47,189 bases of DNA from a virus (IMGVR_UViG_646311924_000019); one strand, 5' to 3'; shown: positions 27,205-30,052, numbered from the stretch's first letter. Notes: generated from the sequence alone by a model not told the origin. Numbers and translations are program-made.

Positions 27205-29142
27205 TCATGCCGCAGTGTCTGTGCTGTTCACTTCCACCGCAATGCTGTCTATCAGTACCGGGTAAGTCGCATTCCTGGTAATGTCTGTCACATGCAGTTT
27301 ATCCGCCGCAAATGCACTGACCGGTGACTGCGTCAGCGTGAACGGTGTGCCATCCTGACCATCAATAACCGGCGTCACCTGAAGGCTGTTATTCCCGGCA
27401 AAGCGGAAAGCCAGCGTATGCCATTCGTTATCAAATGCGCCAAAGGTTCCCAGTTTCAGGTTGTTTGTCGCCACTTTCGCATTGTGGTACATCACATTCA
27501 GGTCTTTTGCATCTGTCTGGATGTAGAACGCTGCCAGCAGGTTATTCCCTCCGTCTCCGGTCAGGGCAACGCCCTGTGGCAGTGAAGATACCGGCCAGTA
27601 AAACGCCATAACATACTGGTTCGCAGCCAGCGCTCCCGAAACCTTAAAGCGGCAGCGAATCTGCCCCCCTTTCTGTAACAGAGCCGCACCGTTGCCCGCG
27701 GCGTACTCCAGCACCCAGCTGCTTTTACCGGCTTCCTTGGTCAGCTTCACTGCCTTACCTCCGGTTCCCTCCGCATCGCTGACCACTTCTGCCCTGCCGC
27801 CACTGGCTGACCATCCCTGTACTTTCAGGCTTCCCTCTGACTCGCTGGCAAGGTAAGAGAGCAGTGTTGTGACGCCTGTGGCTTCTGCACCGGAAGGCGA
27901 TGACGGGCGCACCTCTGATACTGTCGATGATGCCCCCGCGTTTAGCGCCACTCTTCCCGCATGGCGCAAAATCGCCGTTGCCAGACGGTCGGAAATAATC
28001 CCACGGCGTGCCCAGGCGCTGAAATGGCTCGCCCTGTCCTGTGACGTCCAGGTGGCTGAGCTGTCACGCCATTTCGAACCGTAATATCCGATACCCGGAA
28101 TGTCCGGGTCTTCTTCCGGTTTGTTCGTCGGCACATTCACCCCATTCTCATCCGTCATGAACGGTACGAAATGGATATTCTTTTCCGTTTTGTTTTTGTA
28201 GCTGCCGTACACCGTCTGGTACGAGGATTCGTTCTTCTGCTTCCAGAAATACGTCGTGTCCCCGCATATCCAGGGAACACCGTCAGCAGAGCCACCGACG
28301 CACTGACCTGCCATATCCGCCAGGTCTGCACGGAATTTATCAACCTGCGCACCAAACTGTGCTGCGTGATTTGCCGGCGTACCGCCAAAATCAAATTCCC
28401 CCTGCATCCACACCACGGCAAACAGCACATTTTTCGGATTCTTCTTCAGTGCTGCTTTTGTTCGACCGATAAGGTCCTTATACAGCGGCTTGTCCACACC
28501 CCAGCGGGTTGAATTCTCCGAGGCACCACTCGCGTCACTGTATGTGCCATCGGCTCCGGTGGTGAACGCTGAACCACCACGACAGCACGGAACCAGCAGA
28601 ATGCCCGCATTCGCCGGTATAAACGGCAGCAATTTTTTGGCGATATGCAGCCCCTGCCCCACGGTTCCGTACTGCCCCTTTGACAGGTCCGCTTTCGGAT
28701 GGTTAAGGCGGCTCATGTCCTGCACATCATGCAGACAATGGTCCGCCGGAATGATGTCGTTATATTTACAGGCGACACCGCCCGGTGTCACCGTACTGCG
28801 ACGCGCCAGCTGCTTAATGCGCGGGTCCGGACGGTCATATGTCTCCGGCAGCGGAAGGCCTTCACCATATGCCATGCTGTTTGACTGCCCCGCCAGAACC
28901 ACAACAAAGTAATACTCCGGGTCTCTGGTGGCGCTGATTACTGTGCCTTCTCCATCCGACGGCTTCACCAACACAGGTGTGGTGACATCACCTTCCGCCG
29001 CAATGGCCTGCATCAGAGTATAAGGGGTTATGGCCACCGGACTACCAAACGGCTGCCAGCCCTCTTTCAGTTTGTGTGTCAGCTTTTCCGCAAGGTCTGA
29101 CGGCGACGCCGCCCTGACAACATCATAATGTTTAATCGACAT
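27205..29142 (-). CDS. Prophage sialate O-acetylesterase (NanS-p type)
   Basis: 645-aa ORF of the size and position of the esterase gene that follows stx in Stx phages; recognised from memory, not searched. Confidence 0.8.
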   Translation of the reverse strand: MSIKHYDVVRAASPSDLAEKLTHKLKEGWQPFGSPVAITPYTLMQAIAAEGDVTTPVLVKPSDGEGTVISATRDPEYYFVVVLAGQSNSMAYGEGLPLPETYDRPDPRIKQLARRSTVTPGGVACKYNDIIPADHCLHDVQDMSRLNHPKADLSKGQYGTVGQGLHIAKKLLPFIPANAGILLVPCCRGGSAFTTGADGTYSDASGASENSTRWGVDKPLYKDLIGRTKAALKKNPKNVLFAVVWMQGEFDFGGTPANHAAQFGAQVDKFRADLADMAGQCVGGSADGVPWICGDTTYFWKQKNESSYQTVYGSYKNKTEKNIHFVPFMTDENGVNVPTNKPEEDPDIPGIGYYGSKWRDSSATWTSQDRASHFSAWARRGIISDRLATAILRHAGRVALNAGASSTVSEVRPSSPSGAEATGVTTLLSYLASESEGSLKVQGWSASGGRAEVVSDAEGTGGKAVKLTKEAGKSSWVLEYAAGNGAALLQKGGQIRCRFKVSGALAANQYVMAFYWPVSSLPQGVALTGDGGNNLLAAFYIQTDAKDLNVMYHNAKVATNNLKLGTFGAFDNEWHTLAFRFAGNNSLQVTPVIDGQDGTPFTLTQSPVSAFAADKLHVTDITRNATYPVLIDSIAVEVNSTDTAA

Positions 29143-29456
29143 CGAATTTCTCCCGTGTACAGGAACAGAGTTAAAAAGCCGGAACCGGAATCAAATTACA
29201 GGATGGCCATCTGCCAGTGGCTGGTCGTAAAAAAAAGGCCACGCCATGCGCAGCCGGAAATAAAGGGATAACGATGATAGTTTGAGAAAAACAGAAACAA
29301 CACTTTTGTGGCAAAGCATGGTGCCGGGTGCCTCCCGGTGAATTCAGTATCAGCACCTGAATCCGCGATTATCCCATATACCTGGTTGCTGATCGCCCCT
29401 CCGCACAGGGGGATTCACCATGCAGAAGTGTTTTTAATAAACAGCAAACAAAAAAA

Positions 29457-29624
29457 TCAAGCATTATGCAGGCTGTTTCTTTTTATCACCGGCCACAGCA
29501 ATACCATAATGCCGCAGACCAGCACCCCATCCGCCAGCACCGACATGATTCTGCTGGTGAAATCCACCATCACCACCAGAAACAGCAGGAGTGCAGCCAC
29601 AGTCAGGCGCAGTTTTACCGTCAC
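29457..29624 (-). CDS. Small hydrophobic ORF translationally coupled to the TerB-like gene
   Basis: GTG start overlapping the upstream TGA (GTGA); about 55 aa with two hydrophobic stretches; below the track cutoff in this frame. Confidence 0.3.
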   Translation of the reverse strand: MTVKLRLTVAALLLFLVVMVDFTSRIMSVLADGVLVCGIMVLLWPVIKRNSLHNA

Positions 29625-30052
29625 AGGTGATTCTCCAGACGAAGACCCAGAACACCGGCAATCTCTTCCAGCACCTTGCGCTCTTCCGGCTCAATTTCGC
29701 CGTCTGCCTCCGCAATGGCCACCGCCACATCCAGCACATCTTCCGCTTCACGCGTATCGTGTTTCACATCCTCGATCTCACGTAACGCGGCACGACGACC
29801 AATTTTAAAATTGGTATCCAGCTGACCGATAATAGTTGCGCTAATCGCATTAATTTCCGAGGTAAACGCAGACAACGCAGGCTGATTACGTAAGACCTGT
29901 TCGATCTTCGCTTTCTCGGATGCCTCGCATTCACCATCTGCATAGGCCACCAGGTATGCAGCGTTAATCACCGCCTGTGCCAGATCGCGTTTCTCAAACT
30001 TTTTAATTTCCGCTGCCGCTCTGCGGGTTTTCTTTTTGAAGATTCCAAACAT
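29621..30052 (-). CDS. TerB-like (tellurite-resistance TerB family) protein
   Basis: 143-aa ORF with two ADGE...E...L motifs typical of TerB-family domains; ATG lies inside the IS66 target duplication. Confidence 0.65.
   Translation of the reverse strand: MFGIFKKKTRRAAAEIKKFEKRDLAQAVINAAYLVAYADGECEASEKAKIEQVLRNQPALSAFTSEINAISATIIGQLDTNFKIGRRAALREIEDVKHDTREAEDVLDVAVAIAEADGEIEPEERKVLEEIAGVLGLRLENHL

Follow-up and report, generated by a model that had tools for sequence, protein, structure and literature searches.

What takes the place of the toxin genes in a prophage that is laid out like a Shiga toxin (Stx) phage and yet has no stx? The question is raised by the late region of a virus stretch of 47,189 nucleotides (nt), IMGVR_UViG_646311924_000019. 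This whole stretch is called the window here; its coordinates are used below, and its late region lies on the minus strand. The DNA belongs to a lambda-like prophage of O111 enterohemorrhagic Escherichia coli (EHEC) that carries nleC and is of the non-Stx kind. An O111 EHEC prophage of this kind is essentially identical to the window, and RefSeq annotation is cited from that identical locus. A reading made earlier from the sequence alone (the original prediction) had placed in the toxin slot a TerB-like gene and a coupled gene for a small membrane protein, and had taken this cargo to be unusual and expressed from the late transcript on induction. Identity and context can now be given with near certainty: the feature is the tciA-tciB module (tciAB) of phage P1, carried in the lambdoid cargo ("moron") slot. 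The pair has long had a name, its placement where stx would lie and the genes around it have been recorded before, and the finding is ordinary.

A TerB-domain gene and its partner in the stx slot

The 143-amino-acid (aa) product of tciA matched the Pfam TerB family (PF05099; E = 2.9e-16, 60.2 bits against a cut-off of 24.4), its residues 26-138 aligning with positions 2-109 of the 118 in the profile. The solved Klebsiella TerB, 2JXU_A, was matched as well (E = 4.4e-8), with residues 14-137 corresponding to 20-144 of the chain, and it is on these Pfam and 2JXU sequence matches that the TerB assignment rests. TciA further matches PHROG 632 over its full length (E = 1.7e-69) and is 42% identical to P1 TciA, again over the full length (E = 8e-24). 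In 12 phage TciA homologs the acidic residues D23, D39, E46, E66, E92, D95, D117 and E124 are invariant, and two "ADG...E" repeat motifs stand among these positions. The NCBIfam models gave sub-threshold matches only, to the TerB-like region of DjlA. A single-sequence AlphaFold2 model was all-helical and of low confidence (predicted local distance difference test score 56.7, predicted template modelling score 0.29) and was not used for a fold search. Neither a signal peptide nor a toxin domain was found in TciA, which by its Pfam and 2JXU matches has a standard TerB fold and is predicted to be a cytoplasmic TerB-domain protein. The gene is under strong purifying selection, with a ratio of nonsynonymous to synonymous substitution rates (dN/dS) of 0.014-0.046.

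The 55-aa product of tciB matched PF13064 (DUF3927; E = 1.7e-16) and PHROG 1470, "TciB-like" (E = 1.8e-29). Alignment and hydropathy gave two hydrophobic segments with a conserved DFTS loop between them. The GTG start of tciB overlaps the TGA stop of tciA as GTGA, and tciB has its own GGAG 8 nt upstream of the GTG; the RefSeq limits of both genes are exactly those read here. Across nine phage lineages the two genes are separated by -4 to +3 nt (-4 nt in the window), a spacing that would suit translational coupling and a fixed stoichiometry. Selection on tciB is weaker than on tciA (dN/dS 0.45). The 3' third of tciB is a mosaic: DNA homology to phage JLK-2012 begins only at 29518 (29457-29517 differs), and the C-terminal tails of TciB vary among alleles. 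Taken with the dN/dS values (0.45, compared with 0.01-0.05 in tciA), the mosaic points to a recombination breakpoint within tciB.

The position of the pair was defined by blastn comparison with phage 933W. Homology to 933W covers the ileZ-argN-argO transfer RNA (tRNA) genes and the terminator that follows them (33017-32714, 93%) and then breaks. Homology is regained at 29441, in the region of a small RNA (sRNA) of the STnc100 family, a point 87 nt beyond the stx2B stop, and from there nanS-p, S, R and Rz are matched at 85-93%. Between the same two junctions, 933W has 1.37 kb with stx2AB and the window has about 0.73 kb with the leader, tciA and tciB. The terminator after argO lies inside the 933W homology block and is the element annotated upstream of stx2A in 933W. 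A tblastn search of the window with Stx1A/B gave a best E of 0.78. The pair tciAB thus occupies exactly the stx slot of 933W.

These results bear out several claims of the original prediction, namely a 143-aa TerB-like protein, a conserved hydrophobic open reading frame (ORF) of about 55 codons with a GTGA overlap, the absence of a stx ORF, and cargo that sits in the toxin slot when the tRNA-to-esterase interval is compared with that of 933W. The order it had given (Q, terminator, tRNAs, cargo, NanS-p, S, R, Rz) is present, but with an IS66 element between the tRNAs and tciA, and with a 65-aa ORF and an AraC-family gene between Q and the tRNAs. The IS66 element, the STnc100-family sRNA and the AraC-family gene had all escaped notice.

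How unusual is this cargo? In O157:H7 and other genomes the full order of Q, tRNAs, TerB, DUF3927, esterase and holin is found. Hundreds of E. coli genomes have the two proteins in RefSeq under the names "tellurite resistance TerB family protein" and "DUF3927 family protein". Of 5,426 complete E. coli genomes, 785 show the uninterrupted junction of tRNA-Arg with the TerB gene, other O111 prophages included. A scan of IMG/VR with a TciA alignment returned E. coli prophage copies that were 96-100% identical, and its counts therefore describe context among close copies rather than distant relatives: TciB was present in 79 of 80 such loci and tRNAs lay upstream in 70 of 80. In an index of public assemblies, one TciB allele occurs in 4,557 blocks. 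With three TciB alleles, TciB directly followed a PF05099 TerB gene in all ten retrieved loci; for the most common allele, the pair stood upstream of a holin or esterase gene in five of five loci, with an antiterminator gene upstream in four. The same block is carried by phages Evi and PPyecE_EH1910, and phage 434 has an annotated TciB in the same slot. Outside the lambdoid phages, the carriers of tciAB include Pollock, which is N4-like and virulent, and jumbo Erwinia phages.

The position has likewise been described before. A tellurite-resistance protein was reported "in place of the stx2d gene" (PMC9413875, 2022), and the moron slot after pR', with its alternative coding sequences and sRNAs, has been described for the Sakai prophages Sp3, 4, 9, 10, 11, 15 and 17 (Tree et al., 2014; PMC4104026). 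Among the loci examined, the slot usually holds tciAB, far more commonly than stx, and stx is better regarded as its rarer alternative occupant. The view of an unusual non-Stx cargo is therefore not upheld. By its own terms the original prediction would be undone if named non-Stx prophages were commonly annotated with this cargo, and this is what was found, in JLK-2012, in O157:H7 and in the 785 genomes counted above. Taken as a whole, the TerB family, the coupled conserved membrane gene and the stx slot stand, and the novelty of the cargo and the expression of this copy are not supported.

An IS66 element in front of tciA

The copy of tciA in the window is separated from the tRNAs by an element of 2,532 bp that RefSeq calls ISEc47-like. 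It belongs to the IS66 family: three genes (Pfam matches to HTH_Tnp_1, TnpB_IS66, DDE_Tnp_IS66, zf-IS66 and LZ_Tnp_IS66), terminal inverted repeats (GTAAGCGT.../...ACGCTTAC) and an 8-bp target duplication are all present. The duplication, AAACATCG on the plus strand, is found at 30047-30054 and again at 32587-32594. The empty insertion site is seen by comparison with the uninterrupted allele of phage JLK-2012.

The insertion affects the start of tciA. The ATG lies inside the target duplication, with the end of the IS66 element only 2 nt away, and the native Shine-Dalgarno sequence (AAGGA, 7 nt before the ATG) now stands 2.5 kb upstream of the intact ORF. The upstream copy of the duplication (32594..32587) contains ATG TTT, and the orphaned leader yields a 10-codon stub that runs into the IS66 element. 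Can the element itself supply what was lost? An anti-Shine-Dalgarno pairing check of the IS66 end found no Shine-Dalgarno sequence at a functional spacing for tciA. The best pairing lies 15 nt from the ATG, as against 7 nt for AAGGA in the native leader, and is too far to work. A consensus scan of the IS end likewise found no promoter-like site reading out toward tciA. Because the Shine-Dalgarno sequence is lost, TciA is probably made poorly or not at all from the IS66 allele, as judged from its sequence. tciB keeps its own GGAG.

Transcription poses a separate problem. To reach tciA, the late transcript must cross 2.5 kb of IS66 in the antisense direction. The Q-modified polymerase may manage this, since from lambda biology the downstream lysis genes depend on the same transcript. 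The claim that the cargo is expressed with the late transcript on induction is not supported for this copy, in which IS66 separates tciA from its Shine-Dalgarno sequence and the promoter side; for uninterrupted alleles only, it is a reasonable inference. Expression of the copy in the window should not be assumed, given that IS66 cuts tciA off from its translation signals.

The IS66-bearing junction was found in 43 of the 5,426 complete E. coli genomes, and the six strains seen with a named serotype were O111. The TciA protein encoded here is identical to that of the uninterrupted E2865 allele (same WP accession), by which the insertion looks recent. Uninterrupted copies of tciA are present in other prophages of O111 genomes.

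When tciAB may be expressed and what it may do

Expression of the uninterrupted alleles was considered first from their flanks. A simple consensus scan of the coding strand, covering the native tciA leader and the IS66 end, gave no match to a sigma-70 consensus promoter, a scan that a weak or non-sigma-70 promoter could escape. A terminator precedes the leader and, as is looked for in a moron, another is present downstream, after tciB and the sRNA. With two flanking terminators and no consensus promoter, expression of uninterrupted alleles should depend on Q-modified polymerase, that is, on lytic growth. P1 tciABC is placed downstream of the C1-repressed ban promoter (Pban operator in the P1 annotation). 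Together, the flanking terminators, the position behind the P1 ban promoter and the occurrence in Pollock and jumbo Erwinia phages point to a role in lytic growth rather than in the lysogen.

What could that role be? In published work TerB is membrane-associated, and "membrane surveillance" has been proposed for TerB domains in defence systems. On the strength of this membrane link, the favoured guess has TciB keep TciA at the inner membrane. In uninterrupted alleles, the two proteins would be made only when Q-modified RNA polymerase reads through during lytic growth. TciB would form a two-helix hairpin in the inner membrane with both ends in the cytoplasm, and would position there the acidic TerB-fold TciA, which probably binds a metal or a ligand. 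The TciA-TciB pair would then be a minimal Ter-type module that keeps the membrane of the infected cell working until programmed lysis. The depolarising insults countered in this way might include pore-forming colicins, superinfecting phage and abortive-infection pores. The explanation as a whole, comprising a tciAB module, lytic expression, a membrane role and an IS66-disabled copy, is held with slightly better than even confidence. Membrane buffering as the specific mechanism is put forward tentatively, as a possibility short of the probable.

Several points weigh against this explanation. The escape left open by the promoter scan is one of them, and the effect of the IS66 insertion is predicted. 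Both the interaction of TciA with TciB and the membrane location of TciA are features that we infer. In phage 434 (1671-2903), TciB (DUF3927) follows in the same slot a 247-aa membrane protein without a Pfam match, in place of TerB, and another small membrane protein comes after it; TciB can therefore exist apart from TciA and has no strict need of it. The converse is seen in Pseudomonas and Vibrio phages, which have a TerB homolog without an annotated TciB. In the literature, the resistances predicted for such genes were said still to need testing (PMC6799933), and the role of tciABC was said to remain unclear (PMC9603915). P1 tciA, tciB and tciC were non-essential by CRISPR interference (PMC10695390), by which any benefit would be conditional.

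Could the pair instead serve the lysogen? Lysogenic conversion would have tciAB expressed in the lysogen, giving resistance to tellurite, colicins or phages (superinfection exclusion). The name points in this direction, as tci was chosen for homology to TerB of the ter operon, itself linked to tellurite resistance, phage inhibition and colicin resistance. Further points are the retention of the pair across hundreds of E. coli genomes, frequently with copies in more than one prophage of the same genome, and the strong purifying selection on tciA. However, the stretch from the upstream terminator to tciA has no consensus promoter, the pair has a terminator on either side, and in P1 the genes follow a lytic promoter that the repressor controls. 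TerC, TerD, TerE and TerZ are missing from the RefSeq annotation of the prophage, and the paper on D6-like phage-plasmids states that "the operon is incomplete" (PMC6799933). In the strictly virulent phage Pollock, a benefit to a lysogen is impossible. Lysogenic conversion is accordingly considered unlikely.

A comparably low probability is given to counter-defence, in which the phage TerB-like protein would interfere with host immunity during infection, for instance by mimicking or titrating the TerB sensors in Shango, Bunzi or Dionysus. TerB domains are part of defence systems validated in published work. The presence of tciAB in both temperate and virulent phages, and in a lytic-cycle transcription unit of P1, would suit such a function, and what is encoded beside it in the slot is frequently of the defence or counter-defence kind (a methyltransferase, a ParE toxin with a helix-turn-helix (HTH) protein, type I restriction subunits, a Tad2-like protein), although a general cargo-slot neighbourhood counts for little. 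When TciA, TciB, the AraC-like protein, the esterase and the 140-aa ORF were compared with the PADLOC models, no defence system was matched to a meaningful degree; for the counter-defence proposal the best model was PDC-S48 (E = 0.0035 over 35 residues), which is not significant. The partner genes of Shango, Bunzi and Dionysus are not present nearby, and no experimental link is known.

A function linked to the adjacent phage tRNAs, for instance against tRNA-targeting nucleases or colicins, appears very improbable. The tRNA genes do adjoin tciAB in several separate phage lineages, namely in prophages of the present type, JLK-2012, P1, D6, the lambdoid Klebsiella phage 5 LV-2017 and the jumbo Erwinia phage ChrisDB, with tRNA sets that partly differ. 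Yet no tRNAs were found in the flanks (2.5-3 kb) of tciAB in Pollock, Fostie, pJN2-26, 434, or the Pseudomonas or Vibrio phages, and a universal tRNA adjacency of tciAB was rejected on the same tRNA-free flanks. The TerB fold has no known RNA activity, and adjacency could also come from a cargo hot-spot common to both, or from a cassette of tRNAs and tciAB moving together. As for a new toxin-like or virulence cargo replacing stx, its position at the same junctions as stx2AB in an EHEC prophage with nleC is all that favours it, and the idea is barely credible for a standard TerB fold with no signal peptide or toxin domain, whose gene pair is also carried by phages that have no relation to virulence (P1, N4-like and plant-pathogen phages) and is far commoner than stx in the slot among the loci examined.

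The reading of tciAB as a lytic-growth module can be extended, tentatively, to a wider picture. The pair might be a widespread accessory module of lytic growth at the inner membrane, which guards against premature membrane collapse and superinfection or else disarms membrane-linked immunity. The adjacency of tRNAs might then reflect either a mobile "tRNA plus tciAB" cassette or a functional link, and stx and tciAB would be alternative occupants of one slot, tciAB being the commoner.

With the gene pair, its name and its stx-slot position already in databases and papers, the discovery value appears small. The pair is a common and strongly conserved one, for which no published functional test was found.

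Neighbouring features and known counterparts

The coordinates of the late region are collected in Table 1. Directly 3' of tciB and before the terminator, the STnc100-family sRNA gene matched RF02076 at model positions 1-206 (104.7 bits against a gathering score of 47; E = 1.3e-22) and belongs to the conserved backbone upstream of nanS-p. In a preprint by Zhu, Shabalina and Storz (2026), STnc100 is related to PasD, these sRNAs are placed upstream of the esterase gene, and TerB is among the conserved neighbours of the PasA/PasC sRNAs. The presence in this interval of an sRNA from an annotated family, of the STnc100/PasD type, is a useful point. A weak, sub-threshold match to an Esr41-like sRNA (30.9 bits against 102) lies just downstream of nanS-p on the opposite strand (27127-27203, plus strand).

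On the other side of the pair, a tciA leader of about 120 nt is conserved above the level of the coding sequence (96.7% against 90.5% identity to JLK-2012). It was taken from locus L007 (6345-6525, minus strand), and its equivalent in the window is split (32587-32749 and 30047-30054). The leader folds into a long hairpin (z = -3.47 against shuffled sequences). Tested as a possible regulatory RNA, it showed a compensatory change in only one of 35 predicted pairs among 10 variants and matched no Rfam family.

The slot can hold more than tciAB. In some prophages, among them about 18 of the 80 IMG/VR loci, two further genes (about 74 and 73 aa, without a Pfam match) form a cassette between the tRNA terminator and the tciA leader; at locus L031 the position is about 770 nt upstream of tciA. 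The cassette is followed by a near-identical repeat of the terminator/leader junction, by which cargo units seem to accumulate where terminator-like boundaries are repeated. Other cargo stacked upstream of tciAB in E. coli lambdoid prophages comprises genes for a methyltransferase, for a ParE toxin with an HTH gene beside it, or for type I restriction subunits. In Salmonella D6-like phage-plasmid contigs, a Tad2-like gene (PF11195, anti-Thoeris family) lies about 700 nt downstream of tciAB (4381-4956).

Table 1. Features of the prophage late region in window coordinates, in the order of late transcription.
Feature	Coordinates	Strand	Evidence
Q-like late antiterminator gene	34877..34311	-	PHROG 753 "anti-termination protein Q-like", E = 1.2e-80; RefSeq DUF1133 family protein
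65-aa ORF, upstream of AraC-family gene	34087..33890	-	ORF list; RefSeq
AraC-family (YdeO/GadX-like) regulator gene, 237 aa, between Q and tRNAs	33755..33042	-	PF00165/PF12833
tRNA-Ile2(CAT)	33013..32938	-	ARAGORN; Rfam tRNA
tRNA-Arg(TCG)	32928..32852	-	ARAGORN; Rfam tRNA
tRNA-Arg(TCT)	32838..32762	-	ARAGORN; Rfam tRNA
Intrinsic terminator after argO	about 32749..32720	-	Terminator scan: 8-bp stem, 6 GC pairs, T-run
Orphaned native tciA leader	32719..32587	-	Sequence; comparison with uninterrupted JLK-2012 allele
IS66-family element, genes on plus strand	30055..32586	+	Pfam; ends and target duplication; RefSeq ISEc47-like
IS66 tnpA	30140-30565	+	Pfam HTH_Tnp_1
IS66 tnpB	30562-30912	+	Pfam TnpB_IS66
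IS66 transposase gene	30943-32556	+	Pfam DDE_Tnp_IS66
tciA, 143 aa, intact ORF	30052..29621	-	PF05099; 2JXU; PHROG 632
tciB, 55 aa, two predicted transmembrane helices	29624..29457	-	PF13064; PHROG 1470
STnc100/PasD-family sRNA gene	29452..29280	-	Rfam RF02076
Intrinsic terminator between sRNA and nanS-p	about 29255..29229	-	Terminator scan: GGCTGCGCATGGCGTGGCC then T8
NanS-p-type sialate O-acetylesterase gene, 645 aa	29142..27205	-	DUF1737, SASA and DUF6645 (Pfam)
DUF1378 gene	27067..26888	-	Pfam; RefSeq
DUF826 gene	about 26847..26575	-	Pfam; RefSeq
P21-type holin gene	26498..26283	-	Pfam; RefSeq; 933W S homology
140-aa ORF	26185..25763	-	Pfam/RefSeq survey of late block
Lysozyme gene	25720..25187	-	Pfam; RefSeq; 933W R homology
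Rz gene	24913..24422	-	Pfam; RefSeq; 933W Rz homology
Rz1-like lipoprotein ORF embedded in Rz	24669..24484	-	Late/lysis block survey

The three tRNA genes are of the ileZ/argN/argO type and 93% identical to the ileZ-argN-argO block of 933W, and the NanS-p-type esterase gene has about 93% DNA identity to its 933W counterpart. The AraC-family protein matched the NCBIfam YdeO model with E = 5.7e-31, below the cut-off, and a consensus scan placed a promoter-like site ahead of its gene (33818..33791, 10 of 12 matches). By its sequence, the gene may encode a prophage-borne regulator of acid resistance or type III secretion, as known from EHEC. According to RefSeq, a PerC-family regulator gene follows the lysis genes (23643-23957, minus strand), and the type III effector gene nleC stands at the prophage end (1-987, minus strand).

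How does the pair compare with systems that are already known? The TerB of the ter operon (Klebsiella, 2JXU) shares its domain with TciA over nearly the whole length, and the paired acidic "ADG...E" motifs are kept in TciA. The other members of terZABCDE considered, TerC, TerD, TerE and TerZ, are absent from the RefSeq annotation of the whole prophage and of related loci, and TciA has a 55-aa membrane protein as its partner, unlike the TerB of that operon. Shango, Bunzi and Dionysus also share the TerB domain; they sit in defence islands, whereas tciA is carried by phages, without their partner genes.

The genes were reportedly named tciA, tciB and tciC in the P1 genome paper. For the comparison with P1, its GenBank annotation and later papers quoting it were used. 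P1 TciB is of the same DUF3927/PHROG 1470 family, tciA and tciB abut or overlap, and tRNA genes adjoin the pair, as they do here. P1 differs in that a third gene, tciC (35 aa), follows tciB where the window has the sRNA gene, in that tciABC lies behind the C1-controlled ban promoter and not in a Q-dependent late operon, and in that its pair has no insertion sequence. A 34-35-aa ORF (tciC) follows tciB in P1 and in D6-like elements; absent here, it is not defining for the lambdoid version.

Phage 933W is homologous and has the same order of tRNAs and terminator, sRNA-bearing region, nanS-p, holin, lysozyme and Rz. It differs in its type of Q and in carrying the toxin, and the prophage of the window has extra genes between Q and the tRNAs. 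In the non-Stx phage JLK-2012 of E. coli O55:H7 DEC5E, the annotated order of Q, tRNAs, tciA, tciB, yjhS, S, R and Rz is the same. JLK-2012 and the equivalent prophages of O157:H7 and of other EHEC and enteropathogenic E. coli have the same leader, the same GTGA overlap and a TciA 94-100% identical to that of the window; none has the IS66 insertion. JLK-2012 differs in having tRNA-Asn, tRNA-Thr and tRNA-Gly in place of Ile2, Arg and Arg. The AraC-family gene after Q is an addition of the present prophage to the JLK-2012 type, and one that strain E2865 also has.

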